In this document: piece by piece, positions 36,491-63,193 of the stretch
How the letters are laid out: each line of letters begins with the position of its first letter
Numbering within the stretch: position 1 is the stretch's first letter
NCBI GenBank assembly: GCA_038214755.1
Contig: JBBQRQ010000015.1
Span: 1-64,000, forward strand
DNA: 64,000 nt
Direction: 5' to 3'
Source: Verrucomicrobiota bacterium
GTDB lineage: Bacteria; Verrucomicrobiota; Verrucomicrobiia; Limisphaerales; CANJXF01
The notes under the pieces: generated by a model
Seen by the model: only the letters and a program-made list of their open reading frames with translations
Databases searched by the model: none
What the model was told of the DNA's origin: nothing
Translations under genes and position numbers: made by a program

Positions 36491-36970
36491 TTGAAACCAC
36501 GGCTCTATCTTGAAACCACAATTCCAAGCTATCTCGGCGCGCGGCCAAGCAAGAACCCGCGATTGGCGGCAGACCAGCAGGCTACAAAAGAATGGTGGGA
36601 AAAGAGGCGGCATGATTACGAGTTATTTATTTCCGACGTTGTTCTGTTTGAAGTTCGTCGTGGTGATGTCGGAATGGCTGCGGTGCGTCTGGCAGCGCTG
36701 GCGGGCATTCCGGGATTGTGGAATTTGCCCGTTGCTGCCCAACTCACGAACCAGCTTCTTGCCGGTGGCATTCTTCCGCCGAAGGCCGGAGTTGACGCGG
36801 CCCACTTGGGTTTGGCCGCTGCGCATGGCATGGATTATCTTCTCACTTGGAATTGTAAACATATTAATAACCCGGCGTTGCGACCACAAATTGAACTGGC
36901 TTGCGGCGAATGTGGTTTGACGTGTCCATTGATTTACACGCCAGCGGAACTGATGAAGATTCAGTTATGA
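36491..36970 (+). CDS. PIN-domain (VapC-like) toxin
   Basis: LYLETTIPSYL, FISDVVLFEV, DAAHLGLAAAHGMDYLLTWNCKHI acidic PIN motifs; TTG start. Confidence 0.88.
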   Translation: MKPRLYLETTIPSYLGARPSKNPRLAADQQATKEWWEKRRHDYELFISDVVLFEVRRGDVGMAAVRLAALAGIPGLWNLPVAAQLTNQLLAGGILPPKAGVDAAHLGLAAAHGMDYLLTWNCKHINNPALRPQIELACGECGLTCPLIYTPAELMKIQL

Positions 36971-37194
36971 AAACGAACGAAATTTTGGATGAGATTTATC
37001 GTGTGCGAGAAGAATTCGCGCGTGAATGCGGTTACGATGTTCATGTGATGTTTGCGCGCATGAATGAAGACGTTAAAAAATTAAAGGCAGAAGGATGGAA
37101 ATTTGTTTCGCCAGAGCCACGAAAATCAGATGAAACAGCGGAAACTTCTTACGCCTTGCGTGAAGAGCCGACGAAGAAAAGCAAAAACCATTGA
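36967..37194 (+). CDS. Small protein, putative antitoxin partner of the PIN gene
   Basis: ATGA overlap with the PIN gene; NEILDEIYRVREEFARECGYDV helical motif. Confidence 0.75.
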   Translation: MKTNEILDEIYRVREEFARECGYDVHVMFARMNEDVKKLKAEGWKFVSPEPRKSDETAETSYALREEPTKKSKNH

Positions 37195-40200: not shown

Positions 40201-41340
40201 TCCGTCATCTCGGTGAAGAATGGCGGCAAGGTGAAAAAGGGCGAAGCGTTCGTTCAATGGGATCCTTACAACGTTCCGATCCTCTCGGAGAAAGCTGGCA
40301 AAGTTAAATTCCACGACATCATCGAAGGTGTGACGATGAAACAGGAAATGGACGAAACCACCGGCCAGGAAGCAATGGTCATCATCGAGCACAAGGAAGA
40401 TTTGCATCCGCAAATCGTAATCGTGAGTGAGAAGAATGAACCGTTGGCGAACTATCCGATTCCATCCGGCGCGCACGTGGTGTTGAAAGAAGGCGAACGA
40501 ATTGTCGCTGGAACTTTGATGGCGAAAACGCCCCGCAAAACTTCCAAGACCAAAGACATCACCGGCGGCTTGCCGCGTGTGGCGGAGTTGTTCGAAGCGC
40601 GTCGTCCGAAGGATGCTTCGGAAATTTCCAAGATCGATGGCGTGGTGGATTTCGGCGCGAGTGTTCGCGGCAAACGCTGCATCGTCATCAAAGATCAACA
40701 GACCGACGTGGAAGAGGAACATCTCATTCCCATTGGAAAACATGTCATCGTCTTCAAAGGCGACTTCGTCAAAAAAGGTCAGCAACTTACGGAGGGGCCT
40801 GTCGATCCGCATGAGATTCTCGAAATCTCCGGGCCGCAGGAATTGCAGGAACATTTGGTCAACGAAGTGCAGGAAGTTTATCGCTTGCAAGGCGTGACGA
40901 TTAACGACAAGCACATTGAAATTATCGTGCGCCAGATGTTGCGCAAGATTCGCATCACCGAACCGGGCGACACGCAATTCTTGTGGGGCGAACAGATTGA
41001 TAAAATCGAATTCGACAATGAAAATCAGCGCGTCGAAAAAATGGGCGGCAAACCGGCCGAGGCGCAACCCGTGTTGCTCGGAATCACGAAGGCCTCACTC
41101 GAAACAGAAAGTTTCCTAAGCGCCGCGTCATTCCAGGACACCACTCGCGTCTTGACCGATGCCGCGACCACTTCACGCGTCGATTATTTGCGCGGCTTCA
41201 AAGAAAACGTGATCATGGGTCACATCATTCCGGCGGGCACAGGCTACAGTTACCATCGCAAACTCGAGTTGAAACCATTGGTCGAGCCAATCGAAATCGA
41301 ACCGCCGAACCCGCTTTTGGAAGAGCCGTTGGCAGGTTGA
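37213..41340 (+). CDS. rpoC: RNA polymerase beta' subunit
   Basis: [12 protein letters not shown] catalytic motif, N-terminal Zn ribbon, [16 protein letters not shown]. Confidence 0.99.
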
Positions 41341-41366
41341 GCGGTCAGAACAAATTAGTTTTCCAG

Positions 41367-41396
41367 GAGCATCCGATTCGGATGCTCTTTTTTTTT
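41367..41396 (+). terminator. Intrinsic terminator after rpoC
   Basis: GAGCATCC-GATTC-GGATGCTC followed by T9. Confidence 0.9.
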
Positions 41397-41464
41397 GGTC
41401 AATTCAAGATCATGAATGGGATCGCTCAGTTTAATTCCCACGCTTTGATGATTCTCCTACAGAA

Positions 41465-41554
41465 TCAATCCTCCACCGGAACAACCAGATTCTCCTTGAT
41501 GTAATCTTTTCGTTCCGGCGTGTTTTTGCCCATGTAAAAGTTTACAATATCCGG
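41465..41554 (-). pseudogene. Remnant C of the parE-like gene 3' end
   Basis: DIVNFYMGKNTPERKDYIKENLVVPVED*; 23/28 aa identical to the C-terminus of 50551..52380. Confidence 0.9.
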
Positions 41555-42009
41555 TTTAGTTAACGAGAGCGGCCAACAGTTTTTCGAATTGGGAAATATT
41601 CTTTTTCTCTTCTGGCAAGGGCTGCATGGGCATGTTGTTTTACGAAATGAGTCAAATCTTCCACGGTAACAAGTTGTTCGGACGGCGTTCGTTTTCGGCC
41701 AACCATCCGGCGAATCGGCTGCTGCATGATTGGCTCGACCTCGTGTTGCACGACTAAAACGTAATCTCTCGGAGGGTGAAGCGTCAACGCGAGGTTTCGA
41801 ATGGCGAGCTGGTTCTTGAGCAACGAACCCGGCGAGGTGCGTGGGGGTCGCGCAATGGATGCTACTGCCCACTAATCTGGATCACGCTGTGTCCGCGATT
41901 TTTGAAATTCGATCCGACGGAAATTTCGCCTGACAAAAAACCTCATTAGTTTTCCGTAAAGATTCAGTGACACTTACCTCGAACATAGTAATCTGAAATA
42001 GTAATCTGA

Positions 42010-42216
42010 ACACTGAAGCCATTCATCTATGCACCTCCATCAGTAACAATGTACATTCAAAGGTCCGGCTCGGACCTGCAATTGACATGGTCGCAGGGAA
42101 CGTTGCAGGAGGCGGATGTGATAACCGGGCCATGGACAACAGTCACCAACGCCACTTCGCCCTACACGGTGACGCCGAACGGCGTCCAGAAATTCTATCG
42201 TGTGCTGGTGCAATAA
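42010..42216 (+). pseudogene. Orphan C-terminal tail of a secreted Verrucomicrobia-type protein
   Basis: ...[59 protein letters not shown]; in-frame stop just upstream; no signal peptide or main body. Confidence 0.65.
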
Positions 42217-42223
42217 AGCATTT

Positions 42224-42985
42224 ATGACGAACCGCCGAAAATCCGCCGCGGCTCTAACTGGGGAGCAGGCCTTTACCTTGATTGAACTGCTGGTGGTCAT
42301 TGCCATTATCGCTATTCTGGCGGGACTGCTCTTGCCGGCGCTTTCCAAGGCCAAGATGAAAGCCGCCCAGATTCAAGATTTGAATAACCAAAAACAGTTG
42401 TGTTTGGGAATGTTCATGTATCTCGACAGCAATGCGGATCTTTTTCCGGGATGCGCTTCCCGTAACACCTACGGTTTTCATGTCGAGGATTGGATTTATT
42501 GGCGGGCGAATCAACCGGCGTATCCCATTATAAAAAGTCCCATCGTCGCTTATCTCGGCAGCGTGAATAGTAATCTTTTCCGCTGCCCGCTGGACAAGGA
42601 TGACAGCGAGCGACTAAAACTCGCTGCCAGCGATGGACAAAGCCCTTATTACTCCAGTTATAGTGTGACCAGTTACGGTTTGAATGGCACGACCTGCATC
42701 GGAATGACGGGAATCAATGACGGAACCTGGCATCCCTTTCGCAAGAGCAACATTAAAAATCCGACGTCGAAAATCATGATCGCCGAAGAACAATCTTCTT
42801 ATAAACGAGGCGAAGTCTCTGATCCAGGCGCCAGCATCATCAATGATGGACGGTGGGCTGCGCCTGGCGATGTGCTGACCAGTCGCCACAACGGACGAGG
42901 CAGTGTCGGATATGCCGACGGCCACGTGACCGCGATTAAATGGCGAGTCGGATTAAACCAAACTAATTCGCGACCCGATTATTGA
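42224..42985 (+). CDS. Prepilin-type N-terminal methylation protein with H-X9-DG motif
   Basis: [30 protein letters not shown]-terminal [14 protein letters not shown]. Confidence 0.9.
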
Positions 42986-43016
42986 TTAACTCGGTTTGCT
43001 TCTCCTTTTTCAGCGT

Positions 43017-43415
43017 ATGAAACATCTGGCCTTCATTCTATTTGGTATCTGTCTTCTCTCAGCCTGCAAAAAGAAAGAACCGCCGGCTTCAACCCCCGCG
43101 CCGGGTGAGGCCAAACCAGAAGCCACCGTTCCCGCAACCTCAGCGCAAAATCCAACCCCATCTAAACCATTGCCGCCGCCTCCCCAATTCGTTTCGGCCC
43201 GCGCGGATAACTCCATTCGGCAGAGTATCAGCGGCGAAGTGGACCCGTTTCTGACACAGCAGCTCCGCACGTTCGTCCAGCGGAAACAGCGCCTGCCGGA
43301 AAGTTTTGCAGAATTCGCCATGACAAGGCTTGACAGCATTCCTCGCCCGCCCGATGGGAAAAAATGGGCCATTGATACCGCCGATCTCAGCGTGAAGTCC
43401 GTGTTCGCCAAGTAG
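43017..43415 (+). CDS. Small Pro-rich lipoprotein
   Basis: LSAC lipobox, Pro/Ala linker, C-terminal RLPESFAEF...PRPPDGKKWAID. Confidence 0.75.
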   Translation: MKHLAFILFGICLLSACKKKEPPASTPAPGEAKPEATVPATSAQNPTPSKPLPPPPQFVSARADNSIRQSISGEVDPFLTQQLRTFVQRKQRLPESFAEFAMTRLDSIPRPPDGKKWAIDTADLSVKSVFAK

Positions 43416-43710
43416 TGGCTATCGCCTTACCGATCCCGATCCAGGGTCTTCGTGCCCAAACCGACACTGCTCGCGCGCTTTGCGATTTTGCGATTGGTCA
43501 AAACCACGTCCAGATCGTAGTCGCACCCTCATAGCACAAGTGACCAGTTGCTGCCGGACAAACAACCAAGGTCCTTCTTGGAGGTGTGGACGCGAAATTG
43601 TAAGGCCACGTGAGTTTCGAGGCCGAGCCGACGGAAAGAGATTTGACCCTCACCGGCAGCATCGGGCCAGTTGCCTTCTGCCGCGCGTTGGGCTTTCGAT
43701 TTGCCCGCTT

Positions 43711-44040
43711 TCATTTGGCAGTGATGTGTTCCGATGATGCCACGACTACATGCTGTCTCTCAATTTCGCGGCGGAACGGTTCAGGAACCCGCGCCCAATC
43801 CAACACTTCAACAAGTATGGGAAGGTTACTTTCGATGAGCGCCGCCCGGAGTCGATGAATATTCTTCTCCGGCTGATTCAACTGAGCCGGATGGCGAAGG
43901 ACGAGGTCGAGATCCGAACCTTCGTGCCCATCGCCAGCCACGCGGCTGCCGTAAGCCCACACTTCCGCGTCCGGTATGTGCTGCTCCAAAATGTCGAGCA
44001 GCATTCGCAAATGAGAAGGTGGGAGATCAAGTGTCGGCAT
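43711..44040 (-). CDS. Minimal nucleotidyltransferase (MNT) antitoxin
   Basis: VWAYGSRV...SDLDL (GSx10DxD) and LPILVEVLDW. Confidence 0.9.
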   Translation of the reverse strand: MPTLDLPPSHLRMLLDILEQHIPDAEVWAYGSRVAGDGHEGSDLDLVLRHPAQLNQPEKNIHRLRAALIESNLPILVEVLDWARVPEPFRREIERQHVVVASSEHITAK

Positions 44041-44458
44041 GGCCAAATTTTTCGTGAAGCGTCTTTTCAACGTGGCGCGCGTCAATGATAAAGTCGGGCA
44101 GCAGGACAAGAGTTTCTTCGGCAAAACCTTCGCCGTAATCATGCGCGGTATTGTTGCGATTGTCGCGATAGGCGAACCACCGTTCGACCGCGGCATTATC
44201 CAGCAGATTGTGTTTGGCCGCGTGCCGGAGAACGTCTTTGTAGGTCAACTCATCCACCGCGCGCGGATTGCCCACGTAGGATTTGATGGCTTTGCGCAAA
44301 AGTTTCCCCGCCGTTTCCAAAGTCAGTTCATAACCTTTGACCGTCGCATTGCGGAAAATTTCGTAGTCAATGCTGCCCGCCGGTGCCTGCCGCAATTGGA
44401 CCAGAGATTTCTCCAACGTCTCGATGCAGCGCGAAAGATGTTCAGTCCTGAGATTCAT
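44027..44458 (-). CDS. HEPN toxin, HI0074-like nucleotidyltransferase substrate-binding family
   Basis: YELTLE and RNNTAHDY (RxxxxH); overlaps the MNT gene. Confidence 0.9.
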   Translation of the reverse strand: MNLRTEHLSRCIETLEKSLVQLRQAPAGSIDYEIFRNATVKGYELTLETAGKLLRKAIKSYVGNPRAVDELTYKDVLRHAAKHNLLDNAAVERWFAYRDNRNNTAHDYGEGFAEETLVLLPDFIIDARHVEKTLHEKFGHADT

Positions 44459-44562
44459 GGCCTTCGTGTCACGGAAAATTTAGCGCAGACAGATTGCGGC
44501 GGATAGTTTTTTTCGCGTGTCATGGCGCGAAAAGATGGGACTAAATTCAAATCAGAACAACC

Positions 44563-44773
44563 TCAATCCTCCGCGGGCACGACGAGGTTCTCCATGATGT
44601 AATCTTTTCGTTCCGACCTGTTTTTGCCCATGTAAAAATTGAGAATGTCCGAAGCGCTGGACTTGGGCGCGCGTTCCACGTGGCTCAAGCGCATTTCTTT
44701 TCCGACGAATTGCTTGAACGCGCTGGGATTGATTTCGCCGAGTCGTTTGGAGCGCATGATCTTCGGTTTGCCG
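44563..44773 (-). pseudogene. Remnant B of the parE-like gene 3' end
   Basis: GKPKIMRSKRLGEINPSAFKQFVGKEMRL...KDYIMENLVVPAED*; last 59 aa are 47/59 identical to the intact gene; conserved RFKGLGE has decayed to RSKRLGE. Confidence 0.92.
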
Positions 44774-44977
44774 ACACTTAAGCGTCCGCACGTGCAACGT
44801 GTTGTCTCGAAGGGCCAAAGGGGGCAACACCCAGGCAGCCGGATTAAAGTCCTGAAGGGTCAAAACGATTAAAAAACAGATTGCTGTAACCTTTCGCCCT
44901 TGGGAATCGTAATCCACAGTGAGTCGGTGCGTGGGTGTCCGGCGGAGAAACTGGTAAACAAAAAAAGAAAGCATATT

Positions 44978-45934
44978 ATGAAAGCAATTTGGAAATGCGG
45001 TCTGGCAGCAGGATGTCTCATCAGCGCTTTGGCGCCAAGCTTCGCGGAACCCTTGCAGCGCAACGCCGTCGTGAGCGAAGCGGCTTGGGTGCTGCACGTG
45101 GACGTGGATGCGTTGCGCTCAACCGCCGTCGGCAAGCAAATTCTCACCCAGTTGGAGACGCTGGAGGAACAGGCAAAGTTCCTGGTTTACAAAATGATTT
45201 TGAGCTTTGATCCGCGGCGGGCGCTTCACGGTGTCACCCTCTACGGCACGTCGGCGGCACCGGAAGAAGGAGTGGCTTTGGTTTACGCGGACTTCGATCC
45301 GCCTCATCTGACCAGGCTGGCTGAGATGGCGGAGGATCATCGCTCGACCACCAACCGGCAGCGCGTCGTGCATAACTGGATCGACGCCAAACGGCGTGAG
45401 AAGGAGGGCGGTGAACCTCGCACCTACGCCGCCATTCATGGCAAAGTGGTCATTTTCGGGCAGAAGGAACAACGTGTGGTCGAGACCCTGAATGTGCTGG
45501 ATGGTCTGAAGCCAAGCCTCAAGCCCGGCGCTTTGCTCACAAAACCGGCCTCGGCGGGCGAATCGCTTATTATCGAGGGCGCGGCGAAGAAACTGGATTT
45601 AAAAGGGTCGGAGCCGCACGCCGCCATTCTCAAGCAGGCGAAAAGTATTTCGCTCACGGTCGCGGAAAAGGGAGGGCACGTCGTAGGGACGATGGGTCTC
45701 GATGCCGCAGATGAAGAAGCCGGGAAAAACATGGCGGCACTGGCGCGCGGCTTGGTGGCTCTGCTCGCATTGCAAAAGGACAAGCCGGAAACCGTCAAGT
45801 TTGCGCAGGGCCTTTCAGTGGTCGAAGACGGAGCGCGCACGTTGGTCAAGCTGTCTCTGCCGAGCGAGGAAGTCATTAAAGCCATGCAGGCCAAGGCGGC
45901 CCAAAAGGACCCTGCGAAACAGCCTGCGAACTGA
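44978..45934 (+). CDS. Exported hypothetical protein
   Basis: Signal peptide ending PSFA; long ORF heading a co-oriented five-gene run. Confidence 0.75.
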   Translation: MKAIWKCGLAAGCLISALAPSFAEPLQRNAVVSEAAWVLHVDVDALRSTAVGKQILTQLETLEEQAKFLVYKMILSFDPRRALHGVTLYGTSAAPEEGVALVYADFDPPHLTRLAEMAEDHRSTTNRQRVVHNWIDAKRREKEGGEPRTYAAIHGKVVIFGQKEQRVVETLNVLDGLKPSLKPGALLTKPASAGESLIIEGAAKKLDLKGSEPHAAILKQAKSISLTVAEKGGHVVGTMGLDAADEEAGKNMAALARGLVALLALQKDKPETVKFAQGLSVVEDGARTLVKLSLPSEEVIKAMQAKAAQKDPAKQPAN

Positions 45935-45961
45935 ACAAGCTGCATTCAACGCTTCGCATCC

Positions 45962-46618
45962 ATGAACACCGCCCGCAACGAAGCTTGCGACGAAGAACTG
46001 GCACGGTCTGCCCAATCCGGTGCCACGGCCAGTTTCGAGGAACTGGTGTGGCGCTACGAAGGGCGACTGTTCCGGTTTCTCAAACAGTCCTGTCGGAACG
46101 AAGCCGACGCTGCCGACCTCACGCAGGAGGCGTTCGTGGCAGCATACGCGAACCTGGCGCGATACGATTCGGAGCGATCCTTCGCCACGTGGCTGTTCAC
46201 CATCGCCCGGCGGAAACTCATTGACCATTTCCGCGCCAAGCGACCGGCGGATGAGGCGTCGCTGCCAGAGATGGTGGATGAAGACGATCCTGCTGTGCTG
46301 CTTGAGCGCCGGGACGAACAGCAAGCCTTGTGGAATGTGGCGCGCTCGGTCCTGACGCCGGTGCAATTTGAGGCCCTCTGGCTGAAGTACGTGGAGGAAA
46401 TGAGCGTGGCGCAAATCGCCCGTGTGCTGGGCCGCCTCCAACCGCACGTGAAAGTCATTCTGTTCCGGGCCCGCGCGGCACTGGCTGCCGAATTGGAAAG
46501 GTCGGCACAGCGCGACACGACCAATCAGGCGGGAACTCGATCTCCGGAGTTTCGCCCAAATTCACCAACGAATCTTTCCAGGTTGGCAATCGCCTGGGCA
46601 TCTGACCAACGGCTATGA
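45962..46618 (+). CDS. ECF RNA polymerase sigma-70 factor
   Basis: DEELA, DAADLTQEAFV, FATWLFTIARR, MSVAQIARVL, VKVILFRAR. Confidence 0.92.
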   Translation: MNTARNEACDEELARSAQSGATASFEELVWRYEGRLFRFLKQSCRNEADAADLTQEAFVAAYANLARYDSERSFATWLFTIARRKLIDHFRAKRPADEASLPEMVDEDDPAVLLERRDEQQALWNVARSVLTPVQFEALWLKYVEEMSVAQIARVLGRLQPHVKVILFRARAALAAELERSAQRDTTNQAGTRSPEFRPNSPTNLSRLAIAWASDQRL

Positions 46619-47139
46619 AAACGCTATTCGCGAAATTCAAAATCTCGAGCGCGCTCGATGAGTCCAAATCGCAGACTACGGAACCGGGCGAAGCCGGATC
46701 TCCCGAGGTTCGCAGTTTCGGAGAATCCCTCCGGTCTCTCGACCAGCGACTCAAAGATTCCCGGCCACGCGATGGGGCGCCTGAGGGGCTGCACGGCTCG
46801 GTAATGCGCGCAGTGCGGCAAACCGCCCAAGAGCGGGCGACCCAGGCTGAGCCGAAAGCCGCCTCGTGGTTCCGTCCGGCCTGGCTGGCCGCACCGGCTT
46901 TGGTGCTTTTGGCCCTGGCGACAGTGTGGTGGTTTAACCGAGGCACTGCGCCCGATCAACCCACAGTCGCGGTTGGTCCGGCGCAACCATCTATTGCCGG
47001 CGCTGCAGAGCTTCTGGAGGTCGGCGGTCAGGCGCAGAAGGCGACGGCTGTCGCATTGTCACCTTTGTCGGCGGAAGCGGAGTTTCTGAAACAAGACCTG
47101 CAAAACGTCGCGGAGTTTCTGTTGGCCAGCCTGCCGTAA
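46615..47139 (+). CDS. Single-TM putative anti-sigma factor
   Basis: ATGA overlap with the ECF gene; ISSALD, LHGSVMRAV, one TM helix. Confidence 0.7.
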   Translation: MKTLFAKFKISSALDESKSQTTEPGEAGSPEVRSFGESLRSLDQRLKDSRPRDGAPEGLHGSVMRAVRQTAQERATQAEPKAASWFRPAWLAAPALVLLALATVWWFNRGTAPDQPTVAVGPAQPSIAGAAELLEVGGQAQKATAVALSPLSAEAEFLKQDLQNVAEFLLASLP

Positions 47140-47202
47140 GAAGGCCAATGCGCTTCCGTACTCGATAAGTGTTAGCCGTCAACAGATTCGTTAAATGGTA
47201 AT

Positions 47203-49152
47203 ATGAAGACTTCAATTTTGCTGCTCGGATTTTTGGTCGTGGGCCTCACCTTGCGGGAAAGTGTGAACGCGGCGCCCGCCGGATGGGCCAACGACCTTTC
47301 GCCCATCACCGCAAAGGACTGGAACTTTGCTCGGGCCGCGCACCTGTTGGAACGCGCCGCTTTCGGCGGTACGCCGGAGGAAATTGCGAAGCTCGCTAGG
47401 ATGACGCCAGCCGACGCAGTGAATTGCCTCGTTGATTACCAAAAGATTGATGACCGTTCGTTACCAGCCTTCGAGCATTCCGGCATTTACCCAAACGGGC
47501 ACAAGCTGGCCTCGCTCGGAGAAGTGGCGAAAGACGTGTTCGCGACTGGCAAGGCGTATGGCGTGCCCGCGGCGCGCGAGGGCAAGCTGCCATTTCAGCC
47601 GGCGATCAATGAGTTCTACACGCTGCTGTTCAGCGAGCACGCTGAAATGTTGCGCGCGGGCTTGTGGTGGGCCAACCGGATGCTCGTCACGCCGCGCCCG
47701 GTCCAGGAAAAGCTCACGCTCTTCTGGCACGATCACTTCGCCACCAGCCAGGAAAAGGTCGCGAATCACGAACTGATGCTGGGACAGATCGAGACGCTGC
47801 GCCGGCACGCCAACGGCAACTTCCGCGACCTGCTTGTCGCCTTGGCCCAGGACCCGGCGATGTTGATCTGGCTCGACAACCGCGAGAATGTGAAGGGCCG
47901 GCCAAACGAAAACTTCGCCCGGGAAATCATGGAACTGTTCTGCATGGGTGAAGGGCAGGGCTACTCCGAAAGCGACATCCGCGAATTGGCGCGGGCGTTC
48001 ACCGGCTGGACCCTGCGGCCCATCAAGACCACAAACGATGCCGCCCGGTTCGTCGCGGACCCAAAACTGCACGACGATGGAGTGAAGACTTTCCTCGGTG
48101 AAACCGGACGTTTCAACGGTTACGACGCCATTGACATCATTCTCAAGCAACGCGCCACGCCGCGGTTCATCACGCGCAAGCTCTACCGCGAGTTCGTCCG
48201 CGAAGAGATTACACCCGAACTCAATGAACGACTCGCCCGGCTGCTCGTGGAGTCCCACTATGAACTCAAGCCGGTGCTAAACACGATTTTCCTTTCGCGC
48301 GATTTCTACTCCGCGCCGTCAATCGGCACGCAGGTCAAGCCGCCCATTCAGTTCCTGGTCTCGACGTGGCACAAGCTCGGTCTGCGCGGGGCGCCGGGCA
48401 TTCCGGACTTCACCGAAACCGCCGGTGGGTTGGGACAAGTGCTGTTCTATCCACCCAATGTGGCGGGCTGGCCGGGGGGCCGTTCGTGGATCAACCCAGC
48501 CACGCTGCTTGCGCGCGGCAACTACATCCACACGCTGCTCTTCCCAGACCCGGCTCGCTACGTCCCGCCCGACAAGGTCGTCCTTGAAGGCTATCGTCAA
48601 ATCCCGGAGTTGTTCCCGCAGTATGAAATTCAGCCGCATCTGTGGAATCCCAAGACCGGGCGGATGGAACCAGTCTCAATGCGCGAATACAGAAAATTTC
48701 TCGCCCAGCTTGACGCCGGGCCGATGAAGGCAAAGGGCATTGATGAAGCGCCCATGCTCAGCTCCAACGCGATAATGGCTTCTCCGGGCGAAGGAAAATC
48801 CAAAATGAGCCAGATGGCCGACACCGAATGGTTCAATCTCGCAGTAGGCGTTTACTCTGGAATCGTCGAAGCCTTCAATCGCGTGAAACCTGTCCCGCGC
48901 ATCCCGGCAAAAGTGGATTTCGTGGCGATGGCGCGCTCGGCCCAAGTGGCAACGGTCGAGGAAGCGGTGGATTACTTTTGCCGCCGTTTTCTGAGCGTCA
49001 ACCTGGCTTCGGATCGCCGCGCCTCCATCGTCGAGTTTTTGAGAAGTGAACTGAACTCGGCGCGACTCAACTATGACGATGGATCTCTTTCGATTGCGTT
49101 GCGTCGCGTTGTCCACCTGATTCTCAGCGCGCCGGAATATCAACTTGGATGA
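47203..49152 (+). CDS. DUF1800 family protein
   Basis: AAHLLERAAFG, QEKLTLFWHDHFAT, PAMLIWLDN, PNENFAREIMELF, PPNVAGW, PEYQL. Confidence 0.92.
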   Translation: MKTSILLLGFLVVGLTLRESVNAAPAGWANDLSPITAKDWNFARAAHLLERAAFGGTPEEIAKLARMTPADAVNCLVDYQKIDDRSLPAFEHSGIYPNGHKLASLGEVAKDVFATGKAYGVPAAREGKLPFQPAINEFYTLLFSEHAEMLRAGLWWANRMLVTPRPVQEKLTLFWHDHFATSQEKVANHELMLGQIETLRRHANGNFRDLLVALAQDPAMLIWLDNRENVKGRPNENFAREIMELFCMGEGQGYSESDIRELARAFTGWTLRPIKTTNDAARFVADPKLHDDGVKTFLGETGRFNGYDAIDIILKQRATPRFITRKLYREFVREEITPELNERLARLLVESHYELKPVLNTIFLSRDFYSAPSIGTQVKPPIQFLVSTWHKLGLRGAPGIPDFTETAGGLGQVLFYPPNVAGWPGGRSWINPATLLARGNYIHTLLFPDPARYVPPDKVVLEGYRQIPELFPQYEIQPHLWNPKTGRMEPVSMREYRKFLAQLDAGPMKAKGIDEAPMLSSNAIMASPGEGKSKMSQMADTEWFNLAVGVYSGIVEAFNRVKPVPRIPAKVDFVAMARSAQVATVEEAVDYFCRRFLSVNLASDRRASIVEFLRSELNSARLNYDDGSLSIALRRVVHLILSAPEYQLG

Positions 49153-49186
49153 AGCAGTCCCATACTCGATCACCTCCTTTACAGCC

Positions 49187-50437
49187 ATGAACATCATCAA
49201 CCGTTCCTTCCCAACCAGCCGTCGCGATTTCCTCCGCGCGGGTCTTTATGCAGTGGGTGTTTCCGCTGGGCTTCCGGCTTTCTTCCGCCAGATGAGCCTT
49301 GCCGAAACCGCTAACGCATTGAACGGCGCGCCGGAGAAAAATCCCAACCGCATCCTTGTTGTGCTCGAACTCAGCGGTGGCAATGACGGTTTGAACACCG
49401 TCGTGCCCTACGTTGACGATGCCTATCACCGCGCCCGTCCGAAACTGGCCATCCGGGCGAACAAGGTCTTGAAGCTCGACGATCACTTCGGCCTCCACCC
49501 CGCGTGCGAAGGGTTGGAGCGCTTGTTCAAAGACGGCCAGCTCGCCATCGTGCAGGGTTGCGGCTATCCGAATCCGAACCTCTCGCATTTCACGGCGATG
49601 GAATGGTGGCATACTGCCGTGCCGCGCGGCAACGATCCGCACGGTTGGTTGGGCCGCTTCGCGGACGCCCATTGGCCCAAGCCGGTCGAGAACACCATCG
49701 TCAACATCGCTTCCCGCCAATCTCGCGCCGTCGCCAGTGCGCGCCATTCACCCGTGGTGTTCAACGACCCGAAGAAATTCGGACGCCTCGGCACCGACGC
49801 CCAGCAACGCGTATTCGAGACTTTTGGAAAGCTTTACCCGACCACCAATCCCGCACTGGAGTTTGTGAACGAGATCGCCCGCACCGCAACCGTTGGAGCG
49901 GGCAAGGTGCGCCACGCTTGCGCCGAATACCGCACATTGGTGGATTACGGCAGCGCCAATAACCTGACGCTCGATCTCAAGATGACCGCTGCCATGATCG
50001 CGGCCGGATTGCCCACACGCATTTTCTACCTGAGCCAGGGCGGCTTCGACACCCACGCCGCGCAGGCCGACGGACATCAATTGCTGCTCGTCTATCTATC
50101 CGACGCCTTGCGCGGATTCATGAAGGACATTGAGCGTCTTGGCCGCGCCCATGACGTGGTGGTGATGGTCTTCAGCGAGTTTGGTCGCCGCGTCCGCGAA
50201 AACGCCAGCGGCGGCACCGACCACGGCACGGCCGCGCCGATGTTCGTACTGGGCAAGTCAGTCAAAGGCGGATTCCATGGCACCGCCCCGATCCTCACCG
50301 ACCTCGACGACGGCAACCTAAAAATGACCACCGACTTCCGCTCCGTCTATGCCACCATGCTCGACAGTTGGATGGGCTTTGACGAGACCGCCATTGTCCT
50401 AAAGGGAGATTACCCGGTCTTGCCGGTATTTGCATGA
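49187..50437 (+). CDS. DUF1501 family Tat-exported protein
   Basis: SRRDFL, LSGGNDGLNTVVP, GLHP, SHF, GFDTH, SEFGRR, GTDHG. Confidence 0.92.
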   Translation: MNIINRSFPTSRRDFLRAGLYAVGVSAGLPAFFRQMSLAETANALNGAPEKNPNRILVVLELSGGNDGLNTVVPYVDDAYHRARPKLAIRANKVLKLDDHFGLHPACEGLERLFKDGQLAIVQGCGYPNPNLSHFTAMEWWHTAVPRGNDPHGWLGRFADAHWPKPVENTIVNIASRQSRAVASARHSPVVFNDPKKFGRLGTDAQQRVFETFGKLYPTTNPALEFVNEIARTATVGAGKVRHACAEYRTLVDYGSANNLTLDLKMTAAMIAAGLPTRIFYLSQGGFDTHAAQADGHQLLLVYLSDALRGFMKDIERLGRAHDVVVMVFSEFGRRVRENASGGTDHGTAAPMFVLGKSVKGGFHGTAPILTDLDDGNLKMTTDFRSVYATMLDSWMGFDETAIVLKGDYPVLPVFA

Positions 50438-50550
50438 GGTTGAAACGGAAAACCAGACCTCGTCATTTTTGGCTCTCGCGGACCCCAGGTGCCGAGGAAT
50501 CCAGACCAAAGTCTTCTCCCTCGACTGTCGCATTGTTGGAAACTTTCGCA

Positions 50551-52380
50551 TTACTCCTCCACCGGCACGACCAGATTCTCCATGATGTAATCTTTTCGGT
50601 CCGGCGTGTTTTTGCCCATGTAAAAACTGAGGATGTCGGAGACGTTCGACTTGGGCGCGTGTTCCACCTGGCTTAAACGCATTTCTTTTCCGATGAATTG
50701 TTTGAACTCACTGGGATTGATTTCACCCAATCCCTTGAAGCGAGTGATTTCAGAACTTTTGCCGAGCTTCGTCGAAGCAGCGTCGCGCTCGGCTTCGCTG
50801 TAGCAATAAATCGTTTCCTGCTTATTCCGCACACGAAAGAGTGGCGTTTCCAAAACGTAAAGATGCCCGTCATGCACGAGTTGATCGAAGAAACGAAAAA
50901 AATAAGTGATGAGCAAATTGCGGATGTGCAATCCGTCCACGTCGGCGTCCGTCGCGAGGATGACTTTGTCGTAACGCAACCGTTCCATGTTGTCCTCGAT
51001 GTCGAGGCTGCGCATCAAATTATACATCTCGTCATTTTTATAAACGATGTCGCGCTTGAGGTCCCACACGTTGAGCGGCTTGCCTTTCAAAACAAAAATC
51101 GCCTGCATGTTCACGTCACGGCAACTCACGATGGAACCAGCGGCGCTCTGACCTTCGGTGATAAAAACCATCGAGCCTTTGCCTTTGCCCTTCGCTTTGT
51201 CGAAATGAACTTTGCAATCTTTAAGCTGCGGTATGCGGATGGTGATCGCTTTGGCGCGTTCGCGGGCGAGCTTCTTTACGTCCTGCAATTCCTTGCGGAG
51301 CTGCTGCGTGTCTTCGACTTTCGCGACAATTTTTTGCGCGACATCTTTGTTGCGATTAAAAAAGTGGAGCAGTTCTTCGCGAACTGTGTTCACCAGATCT
51401 GAACGAATTTCTGTGTTGCCCAATTTATTTTTCGTTTGCGATTCGAAGACGGGATCTTTCAACCGAATCGCTACCGCGCCGATCATGCACTCGCGCACGT
51501 CGTCGCCTTCAAATTTTCCCTTGGCATATTCGTTGACCGCTTTGAGCAACCCTTCGCGAAATGCGCTCAAGTGCGTGCCGCCGTCTGCCGTGTATTGCCC
51601 GTTGACGAAGGAGAAAAATGTCTCGCCGTAGCGGGTGTTCGTATGGGTGAAACAAAATTCGAGCGTCTTGCTCGTGTAGTGGAGCGGCGGATAAATCGGC
51701 TCGCTGTTGTCCGCCTTCAAATCTTCCAAAACCAAATCCATCAAGCCAAGGCGCGATTGAAAAGTTTGTCCGTTGAAAATTAATTTGAGGCCGCTGTTAA
51801 GATAACTGTAATGGCGCAACCGCTTCTCGATGATTTCCGAGCGGAAGGTTGAGTTCTTGAAAATCTCAGGGTCCGGCTCGAAACGAACGAACGTCCCATT
51901 CGGCTCTTTTGTTTTCCCTTTGCCTTCTTTTTTGAGTTTGCCCTGCTTGAAGAGCGCTTCGACAAATTCCCCGTCGCGATGGCTACGCACATAAAATTCT
52001 TTGGAGAGCGCATTGACTGCTTTCGTGCCGACGCCATTCAAGCCAACGCTGAATTGAAAAACGTCGTCGTTATATTTTGCGCCCGTGTTAATCTGAGAAA
52101 CGCACTCGATCACTTTGCCCAGTGGAATTCCCCGCCCGTAATCGCGCACCGAAACGATGCTGCCTTCAAGCGTGATCTCAATCTCCTTACCGTGGCCCAT
52201 AATGAATTCGTCGATCGTGTTATCGATCACTTCCTTCATCAGGATGTAGCAGCCATCATCGTGATCCGAGCCGTTGCCGATGCGGCCAATGTACATGCCA
52301 GTGCGCAATCGAATGTGCTCCAGCGAAGAGAGAGTTTTGATTTTGCTTTCGTCGTAAACTTGTTTTGGCTTTTCGGGCAT
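50551..52380 (-). CDS. parE: Type IIA DNA topoisomerase subunit B (topoisomerase IV ParE-like)
   Basis: EHIRLRTGMYIG, EVIDN, DYGRGIP, GLNGVG, FESQTK, TEGQSA, KGKPLN, TDADVDG, RFKGLGE; about 609 aa with no GyrB-type tail. Confidence 0.85.
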   Translation of the reverse strand: MPEKPKQVYDESKIKTLSSLEHIRLRTGMYIGRIGNGSDHDDGCYILMKEVIDNTIDEFIMGHGKEIEITLEGSIVSVRDYGRGIPLGKVIECVSQINTGAKYNDDVFQFSVGLNGVGTKAVNALSKEFYVRSHRDGEFVEALFKQGKLKKEGKGKTKEPNGTFVRFEPDPEIFKNSTFRSEIIEKRLRHYSYLNSGLKLIFNGQTFQSRLGLMDLVLEDLKADNSEPIYPPLHYTSKTLEFCFTHTNTRYGETFFSFVNGQYTADGGTHLSAFREGLLKAVNEYAKGKFEGDDVRECMIGAVAIRLKDPVFESQTKNKLGNTEIRSDLVNTVREELLHFFNRNKDVAQKIVAKVEDTQQLRKELQDVKKLARERAKAITIRIPQLKDCKVHFDKAKGKGKGSMVFITEGQSAAGSIVSCRDVNMQAIFVLKGKPLNVWDLKRDIVYKNDEMYNLMRSLDIEDNMERLRYDKVILATDADVDGLHIRNLLITYFFRFFDQLVHDGHLYVLETPLFRVRNKQETIYCYSEAERDAASTKLGKSSEITRFKGLGEINPSEFKQFIGKEMRLSQVEHAPKSNVSDILSFYMGKNTPDRKDYIMENLVVPVEE

Positions 52381-52559
52381 AAGAAAAAATGGATTAATCA
52401 CGACCGCTTGCAAATGAAGAAATGCGCCCGGCTTCGCAAGAATCCGATTAGCGAACGATGTTGACGCGGCTGGTCTTCCGAGGCTAGGGTTTTTCTCAAC
52501 CCAAGATATTTTGACTTCCCGAAAACACTTAGATGAAGACGCTCTTTGAACTTCTTCGT

Positions 52560-53342
52560 ATGCATGACACTCGTAACGTGCGTCGGTGCCGCGCAACTTC
52601 AAATGGCTTCACTTTGATCGAGCTGTTAGTGGTAATTGCTATCATCGCAATTCTGGCCGCGCTCCTTTTGCCTGCCTTGAGCAGCGCAAAAAACCGCGCC
52701 CAGCGCACAGTCGATCTGAATAACAACCGACAAATTCTTTTGTCCTCTCACATGTATTCCACCGATAATCGGGATTTGATGGCCAATTCCGGGTGGGGAA
52801 CGCTTAGCCCGAGTTGGGCCTACGACGCTAACATCGCCGCCAACAGCGGAACGTCGCCGGCAGGCTTCCCCATTGTTCTTGCCCAACAACTTAATTTTTT
52901 TCGGCGTGGTCAGATCTATCCTTATATTAAAACCGAAAAAGTTTTGCTTTGTCCGGCGGACAAGCTGGACAACAATTTTTATCAACGCGGCATTTTGTTT
53001 ACGAGCTACGTCTGGAACGGCGCGATCAATGGCTACGCGGACAATCGCTCCTACAAGGCGAGTGCCTTCAAGTCCGATCGCGTCTTGATGTGGGAAACGG
53101 ACGAGAAGACGCCTTTCTTTTTTAACGATAGTTCTAGTTTTCCAGATGAGGGAATGTCAGGTCGCCACGGGAAAACCGCCACCATCGGATTATTTGGTGG
53201 CAGCACTGAAAGCTTAAAAACGAATAAATGGTACTCTACGGATTTCGCCGGGCCTGCAGGGCAACGCGGCGCGTCCATTCCGGTGAATCGGTTGCCCAAT
53301 AGAGCGTGGTGCAGCCCGAAGACCGCTAATGGCCTTCGGTAA
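52560..53342 (+). CDS. Prepilin-type N-terminal methylation protein
   Basis: [30 protein letters not shown]-terminal [13 protein letters not shown] (H-X9-GG variant); start uncertain. Confidence 0.88.
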
Positions 53343-53356
53343 TCAATCAGTCGGTC

Positions 53357-53758
53357 ATGAAATTTTTTAAAGGCATTCGTTTTTTTCAAATTTCCTGTAT
53401 TTTGTTCTTGGCTGGAACATTCGTCGCGGGATGTGGCGACAAGAAAGTTGTTATTGAACCGAAGCCGCCGCGCCAGGAAATCAAATCGGGTTCGCCTTCC
53501 GTTGTTTCGCCCTTGAGCGTGTCGCCCGCAGTGGGCTGGAACGAAGTTGAAGTCGCGCTGAAAACACACGATTACGACAAAGCGACCGATGCGCTTCTCG
53601 CCCTTCAGACACAAAAGGGATTGAGCGAGCAACAAGCGGCTGCTGTCCAAAGCCAGATGCAAAAACTACAATCGAATTTGGCCGATGCCATCGCCAATGG
53701 AGATGCAAAAGCCAAAGCGGCCGCCGACAAACTCCGTCGCGCTTCCTTGGCCCGTTGA
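53357..53758 (+). CDS. Small helical lipoprotein
   Basis: VAGC lipobox; follows the prepilin-like gene. Confidence 0.75.
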   Translation: MKFFKGIRFFQISCILFLAGTFVAGCGDKKVVIEPKPPRQEIKSGSPSVVSPLSVSPAVGWNEVEVALKTHDYDKATDALLALQTQKGLSEQQAAAVQSQMQKLQSNLADAIANGDAKAKAAADKLRRASLAR

Positions 53759-62353: not shown

Positions 62354-63193
62354 CTACGCCGCCTTCCGGAACTTTTTGGCGGCAGGTTTGCCCGACTTTT
62401 TTGTTTTCCCAGCGCCTTTGGTTTGATCGAGACTTTGTTGAAGAATTGAAACCAGGTCCACCACGTTGGTCGCCTTGGCAGACTTCGGTCTCGACTCAGG
62501 AAGTTCTTTGCCGCCGCTTTTTATTTTTTCCTGGATTACTTTCATCAACCCTTCGCGATATTCGTCTTTATATTTTTCCGGCTCCCAGTCGCCGCTCATC
62601 CCCTCGATCAGCGATTCGGCCATGGCCAATTCTTTTTTCCCGGCCTCGACCTTTTTCGGCAGGTTCAATTCTTTGGTGTCGGCCAATTCCTCGGCGAAGT
62701 GCATCAACTCCAAAACCAGCGCGTCATCCAGAGGCTTGACGGCAGCCAAATGCTCGCGGGTTTTAATGGTGACTTTGGCGACTCCCACTTTTCCTGAACG
62801 CTTCAATGCTTCGCGCAAAAGAACGTAGGCTTTGTCGCCGCCTTTTTCCGGCGCGAGAAAATACGGTTGATCAAAAAACATCGGATCGATCTCTTCCAGC
62901 GCCACAAATTCTTTGATGTCCACGGTCTGATTGGACTTGATGTTCACGCGCTCAAAATCTTTGTCGGTGAGAATGACAAATGAATCCTTCTCATACTCGA
63001 AACCTTTGACGATGTGATCCCAGGGAACTTCTTTCGCATCGGCTTCGGCGACGCGTTTGTATTTGACCGCGCTTTGGTCGCTGTCGCGCAACAGGCGAAA
63101 TTTAATTTCATTGGCCGGACGGGTCGCCGAATAAAGTGCTACCGGAATATTGACCAGGCCAAAACTGATCGAACCTTTCCAAATTGCTCGCAT
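62354..63193 (-). CDS. ku: Non-homologous end-joining protein Ku
   Basis: MRAIWKGSISFGLVNIPVALYSA, IVKGFE, FFDQPYFLAP, YKDEY, VVDLVSILQQSL, basic tail. Confidence 0.95.
   Translation of the reverse strand: MRAIWKGSISFGLVNIPVALYSATRPANEIKFRLLRDSDQSAVKYKRVAEADAKEVPWDHIVKGFEYEKDSFVILTDKDFERVNIKSNQTVDIKEFVALEEIDPMFFDQPYFLAPEKGGDKAYVLLREALKRSGKVGVAKVTIKTREHLAAVKPLDDALVLELMHFAEELADTKELNLPKKVEAGKKELAMAESLIEGMSGDWEPEKYKDEYREGLMKVIQEKIKSGGKELPESRPKSAKATNVVDLVSILQQSLDQTKGAGKTKKSGKPAAKKFRKAA

Follow-up and report, generated by a model that had tools for sequence, protein, structure and literature searches.

The DNA examined here is a window of 64,000 nucleotides (nt), positions 1 to 64,000 of contig JBBQRQ010000015.1 (assembly GCA_038214755.1) of a bacterium of the phylum Verrucomicrobiota (genome G000), in which copies of the 3' end of a parE-like gene alternate with blocks of unrelated cargo genes. 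Family matches to prepilin/H-X9-DG and Verru_Chthon models agree with that phylum. The intact gene (50551..52380, reverse strand; ATG at 52380, stop at 50551-50553), which is the anchor of these blocks and ends in tail A, encodes a type IIA topoisomerase B subunit of 609 amino acids with Pfam matches to DNA_gyraseB, Toprim and gyraseB_C. Although the NCBIfam gyrB/parE models match it with scores below their cut-offs, the name parE is reasonable because a separate gyrB-like gene is present on contig C20 and the orthologues in relatives are followed by parC-like genes.

Tail copy B (44563..44774, reverse strand) consists of about 70 codons and a TGA stop, is decayed, and matches parE at 83% over 212 nt by BLAST (E 1e-55). 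Tail copy C (41465..41551, reverse strand), of 28 codons and TGA, matches at 94% over 71 nt (E 3e-24) and, by tblastn, at 82% over 28 amino acids. Both had been predicted from the sequence alone; BLAST recovered them on the strand of the intact gene, so that the parE C-terminus indeed occurs three times in one orientation, and codon counts reproduced the 47 of 59 (B) and 23 of 28 (C) identical residues first given (48/60 and 24/29 with the stop codon). Third codon positions hold many of the differences, as described at the outset: 16 of 27 for B and 8 of 12 for C. Twelve of the 59 residues are changed in B, and the shared last 29 codons contain three changes at conserved residues in each copy. 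Among the states thought to unite B and C, NFY is peculiar to them within the genus sample, but ERKD and Asp-TGA are no proof of their kinship because congeners G003 and G007 carry the same states. B has the G-K-P loop type of G003, G004 and G007, not that of A and G006.

The tail copies at parE are genuine and no artefact. In the probable source run, which is probably from the same sample, unitigs cross rpoC-C (40854-41599), B and the DNA on either side of it (41583-46760) and the junction of DUF1501 with parE (50200-51070), with zero or one difference at an even depth of 19-26; no single piece covers the whole stretch. A terminator-like hairpin (41365..41389, forward strand) between the convergent end of rpoC (41340) and C is a consensus match only, four such sites being found versus 5.3 in shuffled sequences. 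An orphan 51-nt parE tail behind an unrelated gene (G000:C32:33511-33561) is the fourth parE tail in the genome, and parE pieces away from parE are also present in G005 and G024.

The two cargo blocks have the content first described for them, and none of their scanned open reading frames (ORFs) matches an integrase or transposase family, again as predicted. The inner block, between A and B, has a G+C content of 59% (44775-50550) versus 53% for the genome. All five of its genes are on the forward strand: a DUF1501 gene (49145..50437), a DUF1800 gene (47203..49152) and an ECF sigma factor gene (45962..46618) were identified by family scan, an anti-sigma-like ORF (46615..47139) matches an NCBIfam antisigma model below its cut-off (E 1e-6), and an ORF of 344 amino acids (44900..45934) has no family match. 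No continuous DUF1501-parE match that might mark a donor of this block was found among the matches listed for 301 genomes (best two candidates per genome), nor was a donor of the DUF1501/DUF1800/ECF genes found in 80 metagenome loci.

The outer block, between B and C, begins directly behind B with an HI0074-like/nucleotidyltransferase pair identified by family scan: a nucleotidyltransferase substrate-binding or HepT-like protein (44027..44458, reverse strand) and a minimal, MntA-like nucleotidyltransferase (43711..44031, reverse strand). It continues with the decayed tail of another gene (43428..43505, reverse strand; blastx 80% over 25 amino acids), whose parent (G000:C4:31513-32697) is presumably deoxyhypusine synthase-like. 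Next are a lipoprotein-like ORF labelled from its sequence and without a family match (42996..43415, forward strand), a gene for a protein with a prepilin-type N-terminal and an H-X9-DG C-terminal domain by family scan (42200..42985, forward strand), and the orphan C-terminal 50 or so codons of a secreted-protein gene (42040..42204, forward strand; blastx matches, E 1e-10 to 5e-7, at the C-terminal ends of five G000 proteins). G002 has a partial homologue of the lipoprotein-like ORF (76% over 127 nt) beside the same prepilin-like gene. The last feature (41560..41797, reverse strand) is a small ORF (approximately 41751-41560) that overlaps the first 23 or so codons of a DUF6036 nucleotidyltransferase gene, cut at the joint to C. 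The outer block, with stubs of two unrelated genes and a cut DUF6036 gene, is a patchwork and preserves traces of more than one event. In G003 and G006 the parE stop is immediately followed by the small ORF that here lies against C, in agreement with the proposal that downstream DNA arrives with the tail, and on contig C97 of G000 this ORF precedes DUF6036-parC. A second prepilin-like and lipoprotein-like pair, resembling that of the outer block, lies upstream of and divergent from parE (52533-53758).

Copies of gene ends across the genome

The 3993 genes called in G000 with a home-made caller were each compared with the non-genic part of the genome. The scan was limited to copies within 15 kb on the same contig, to parents of at least 150 amino acids (3001 genes) and to segments with no more than four matches. 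It found 48 same-strand copies of gene tails downstream of their parents (43 genes) and 17 copies of gene heads upstream (15 genes), versus six matches in all other classes of gene ends; internal pieces gave 29 further matches. The original prediction of an integron-like array specific to parE is therefore too narrow: parE is one of about 58 anchors in the genome, and a mirror form of the pattern exists at 5' ends. Among the anchors recognised by sequence are genes that we take to be lysS, serS, thrS, pheT, purB, accC, mutS and deoC. The distance from gene to copy ranges from 29 to 9012 nt (median 741, n=65). Tandem paralogues account for a few of the 65 pairs; ten rows (seven parents) were removed before codon analysis, leaving 55 copies with repeat lengths of 35-334 nt. 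About 71 further end copies lie far from the parent gene, some of which are probably pieces of paralogues.

The cargo of these loci frequently includes families associated with toxin-antitoxin (TA) systems, which scans of hand-picked ORFs revealed in 21 of 40 regions that together cover most of the pairs. The families are PIN, ParE, HicAB, HigB, PemK, TumE, HEPN/nucleotidyltransferase, DUF433/5615, DUF4160/2442, DUF4258 and DUF4926/6883, the DUF families being presumed to have a toxin-antitoxin link. Pfam scans of the hand-picked cargo ORFs gave no match to an integrase or transposase family. The possibility that every TA locus entered by end capture was not supported: none of 66 further TA-like loci is inside a detected pair and five are near an end copy, compared with 99 of 1353 control genes, the seeds for TA loci having been drawn from scarred loci. 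Uniform scar density in the group was rejected, as one 20-kb pipeline found nine scars in 1.12 Mb of G000, none in 0.4 Mb of G001, one (a 64-nt copy, 100% identical) in 0.2 Mb of G018 and none in 0.2 Mb of G039, although a purB stub is present in G001.

Two other loci of G000 are of note for their arrangement. At a thrS-like gene (L076, G000:C42:20000-29000), internal and tail pieces are interleaved with a CAP12/TIR protein gene and two TA pairs in a stack larger than that of parE. At G000:C1:127384-131680, a single insert has a copy of the upstream gene's tail on one side and a copy of the downstream gene's head on the other.

Stacks at parE in relatives

The last 79 residues of ParE have a match in 240 of 301 genomes of the order, and two or more matches in 26 of them by a hand count that is an upper bound. 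Stretches around parE were inspected in 12 of these 26 genomes, and seven have same-strand downstream copies. There are about three copies of the parE end each in G059 (a genome of two contigs), G191, G171 and G186, and one in G007. Among 80 metagenome loci, 51 of which extend at least 1.5 kb downstream, clear copies are present in three, including L164, where three copies are followed by parC. None of the eight congeners compared has an empty rpoC-parE site.

Gene order in these relatives agrees with the predicted outward displacement of old ends. G007 has parE, a HicA-like pair, stub, small ORF and parC in succession, and G043 has parE, three genes, stub and parC, so that in both genomes the copy is beside parC. 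A 3-kb sensor-kinase block is located behind the intact parE in G191 and behind the second copy in G186 (77.6% over 3014 nt). The third parE copy of G059 (L294) is followed by genes for a cytosine methylase and Vsr. The parE genes of L040 (G020:C66) and L122 contain an in-frame insertion close to the C-terminus.

Origin of the copies

At several anchors the DNA beside a stub or an intact gene can be traced in other species. The 170 nt behind the purB stub of G000 are the DNA that follows the intact gene in G001; the DNA before the pheT head stub of G000 precedes the intact gene in G007, and the ORF that is now beside pheT in G000 precedes pheT in G005 and G006. In comparisons at the level of species, G001 for purB and G007 for pheT look like empty sites with a single copy of the target. 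A cargo ORF at deoC is 94-95% identical in G000, G005 and G007; its joint lies at -141 in G000, compared with about -60 in G005 and G007.

Together with the geometry of the loci, the donor-type divergence, the variation in joints, the presence of the resident flank on the stub and, in two genes of relatives, foreign tracts longer than the stub, such cases are probably best read as gene capture from relatives through a single anchor, similar to homology-facilitated illegitimate recombination (HFIR). Linear DNA of a related species would bring part of a core gene and the neighbouring DNA of the donor. The homologous part would recombine with the resident gene at a point that is often hundreds of bases short of its end, leaving the gene intact with a donor end, and the other end of the donor DNA would be joined at some arbitrary position close to the end of the resident gene, with no need of extended homology. 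If this joint fell inside the gene, the last or first 35-860 nt of the resident would be left on the far side of the cargo as a stub that is still linked to the old neighbour. Repeated events at one anchor would stack blocks and push older stubs outward, and finished alleles could spread by ordinary two-flank recombination. The features of HFIR seen here are one-sided homology (at parE, pheT and deoC, cargo is beside the same gene in relatives, and lysS and parE of G007 contain foreign tracts) and a variable, non-homologous second joint. Short microhomology at the illegitimate joint is another feature of HFIR; the joint at C has a possible overlap of 4 nt, judged by eye only.

We infer entry by transformation, the enzymes that would act and the order of events at parE of G000. 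HFIR is a RecA-dependent process of natural transformation, and the genome contains genes of the ComEC and DprA families. Ku and non-homologous end joining were considered as the required joiner and rejected: G000 has Ku, but none was found in G043, G059, G175, G186, G191 and G211, all of which have parE copies, and Ku exceeded the cut-off in 13 of 45 genomes searched. The Ku gene of G000 is in the window (62354-63193), and all six members of the genus searched possess one; genes on contig C4 are presumably LigD-like.

An unlikely alternative is a Campbell-type circle, in which a gene-end fragment with cargo is excised between gene and stub in a donor and inserted by one crossover, making the stub a donor/resident chimera. 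A circle explains duplication without loss and the deoC alleles of G005 and G007 with the same joint, as well as the mixed affinity of B and an A that is not visibly foreign, and a circle model has been proposed for displacement of rhs C-termini in the text of PMC2935791. However, the replaced part cannot exceed the duplicated length. The lysS gene of G007, compared with three congeners that agree with each other, differs at 23 of 647 sites in its 5' part but, over the final 600 nt, at 71 of 454, and its stub is about 175 nt long, and parE of G007 has a switch of affinity near -790 (0/200 and 9/200 permutations) and a stub of 170 nt. In both genes the foreign tract (at least 600 nt in lysS) is several times the length of a stub of about 170 nt, which one crossover with a circle cannot produce, whereas a homologous crossover farther upstream and a second joint close to the gene end can. 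The cargo also ends inside a donor gene at C and deoC, and the circle presupposes an earlier stub, which makes it a better account of spread than of origin.

Insertion with long target duplication in the strict sense, whereby break repair copies the resident target so that the copies are identical at the start and the outer one decays, is decidedly unlikely. The variable repeat lengths of 35-334 nt, the lack of a mobility gene and the overlap with start or stop codons fit the account of this process in the text of PMC2853133. Identity reaches 97-100% in a few copies, high proportions of nonsynonymous differences (pN) are seen in some, and the 12 changed residues of B also suit decay. Against this process, pooled pN over the 55 copies is 0.080 and the proportion of synonymous differences (pS) is 0.351 (pN/pS 0.23), with 58% of differences at third positions, whereas simulated duplication and neutral decay produced 0.40-0.51, with 0.37 as the lowest value over 180 runs, and about 43% at third positions. 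The ratio is below 0.3 in 31 of the 40 copies with pS of at least 0.2; local alignment trims decayed ends and may lower pN/pS somewhat. Because 0.23 is below the range for duplication and decay, most of the divergence appears to have arisen while both sequences worked as genes in different lineages, with decay occurring later, B being clearly decayed. The bias towards silent sites thus points to diverged functional alleles, as expected if the tails came from related donors, and disfavours local duplication. Two more observations are contrary to duplication of the resident target: cargo is found behind the same gene in other species, and in G007 the lysS stub resembles congeners (0.88-0.91) more than it does its own gene (0.79). 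Some of this evidence could be mimicked if two-flank recombination re-diverged the intact copy at a later time.

Site-specific elements that restore the gene end, with an integrase acting in trans or since deleted and stacks built by tandem accretion, are very improbable. Islands that restore the 3' ends of protein genes are established, and the genome has five tyrosine-recombinase matches, the nearest of which are 11.8 and 14.3 kb from any pair; the genome-wide search covered the tyrosine family, not serine recombinases or transposases. About 58 anchors at both gene ends are not what a site-specific element would produce. The copies begin at unrelated positions without a common motif, in keeping with the prediction that the remnants start at differing codons: the most frequent 5-mer is present in 7 of 53 junctions, inside the random range of 5-11, and no fixed att site was found in parE, whose copies start at about -70 to -860 from the stop in eight other genomes and two metagenome loci, a spread that contradicts site-specific insertion at this gene. 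An assembly chimera of co-occurring strains is scarcely credible, in spite of 175 contigs, a sediment metagenome and many contigs of other organisms that map on conserved genes, because single unitigs cross each junction at even depth, the copies are decayed, and the pattern recurs in other genomes, including the two-contig G059.

Several points weigh against capture from relatives. Comparison of eight other loci with five congeners each located the flank of the stub on an intact gene only at purB and pheT; it was not seen in congeners at lysS, accC, nuoE, aroF, a C27 gene and deoC, where congeners have stubs of their own at lysS, accC and deoC. The tract-length argument comes from two genes, both of G007, with other species as proxies for the donor and resident. 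In G000 itself, the intact parE tail is closest to G006, like the gene body, replacement of A is not demonstrated, a breakpoint test on two trios was equivocal (60/200 and 2/200 permutations), and B has mixed affinity along its length. Decay rises outward in the four stacks of G059, G171, G186 and L164, but neither G191 nor G000 shows this trend. ComEC and DprA are present in 10 of 14 control genomes and so do not demonstrate competence, and experimental HFIR is, according to the text of PMC5361080, rare and of an insertion-deletion type.

The original prediction of a chronological array with the newest block nearest parE is unproven, B and C having equal numbers of changes at conserved residues and A being not clearly foreign, and decay is uninformative as a clock in G000. 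Geometry suggests the order C, then B, then A, and some of the stack could have come in already assembled. The mechanism first proposed, with diverged donor tails and outward displacement, largely stands; its scope was too narrow and its chronology at the locus is unproven.

Relation to known systems and significance

A published name for the pattern exists, insertion with long target duplication, which reportedly goes back to Nobusato in 2000. The text of Furuta, Abe and Kobayashi 2010 (PMC2853133) describes it as lacking a mobility gene, with long, variable direct repeats often over a start or stop codon, the gene left intact, mostly in competent species; the genes inserted are those of restriction-modification systems, the repeats are approximately 86-100% alike (Table 3) and the model is break-induced. 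The loci described here are similar in their variable direct repeats of more than 30 bp (212 nt for B, 87 nt for C) and inserts of less than 20 kb. They differ in cargo, which consists of TA pairs and general accessory genes (no restriction-modification family was found among the scanned cargo ORFs of G000), in repeats that are mostly 75-97% alike with a bias towards silent sites, in about 58 marked genes and in stacking. One copy here would be derived from a donor, according to indirect tests (silent-site bias and donor-like tracts).

Displacement with similar results is known from secretion and rhs loci. In Vibrio, sequential displacement of effector-immunity modules of its type VI secretion system (T6SS) is attributed to HFIR in the text of Kirchberger 2017 (PMC5361080). 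Those arrays likewise combine an anchor with an illegitimate joint, move older material downstream and are integron-like without an integrase. They are described there for T6SS loci only, with exchange of the effector domain of the anchor, whereas here any core gene can serve as the anchor without a change in its protein, insertion takes place at either end and the cargo has no relation to the anchor. At rhs loci, for which the text of Jackson 2009 (PMC2935791) proposes a circular intermediate, the tips are variable toxin domains; strings of core fragments of variable length behind an intact gene and donors that are close homologues are common to both, but in two cases here the foreign tract is longer than the stub, unlike in the circle model. 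The parE locus bears only a resemblance to an integron, as a stack that would grow at one end, and differs in having no integrase in the blocks, no shared recombination site or junction motif, and cargo in mixed orientation; no attC model was run. On the favoured reading, the pattern is a variant both of insertion with long target duplication and of the displacement suggested at T6SS and rhs loci, a kind of event that is little studied. The genome-wide form at core genes, or any form in Verrucomicrobiota, was undescribed in the literature searched (main texts, with few subscription papers).

The first entry of TA pairs and small accessory genes between core genes is usually explained indirectly, by loss of an element and later two-flank recombination. 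Chromosomal TA islets, small TA modules between core genes without mobile-element genes as here, are attributed in the main text of Belot 2026 (PMC13617665) to entry with mobile elements, streamlining and then two-flank recombination; the terms 'direct repeats' and 'illegitimate' are absent from that main text. The stubs described here suggest a direct route of first entry for part of such islets. The scar is preserved at about 58 loci of a single genome and at many loci of relatives, with crossover, joint and type of donor legible from the sequence. The evidence favours a gene end supplied by the donor over duplication of the resident target, and with a donor-supplied end, insertion with long target duplication would become one form of HFIR. 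It is quite possible, if somewhat short of probable, that one-anchor capture is no rare accident but a main, enzyme-free route of interspecies gene gain in this lineage, probably Limisphaerales, using either end of almost any core gene, placing TA pairs into operons, building ordered stacks at hotspots such as parE across the order and breaking conserved operons over time. If so, tracts of cross-species recombination could be read from the stubs. The data also imply that core genes in these taxa have mosaic ends, a point of relevance to phylogenies built on them.

Both the parE-parC and the rpoC-rpsL operons are split in G000, with rpsL and parC both on contig C97. The rpoC-rpsL adjacency is kept in six of seven congeners, G007 having a terminator instead, and no rpoC stub precedes rpsL on C97. 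Between rpoB and rpoC there is a two-gene module (36491-37194) with no gene-end scar; it has no Pfam match of its own and is PIN-like through similarity to other proteins of G000.

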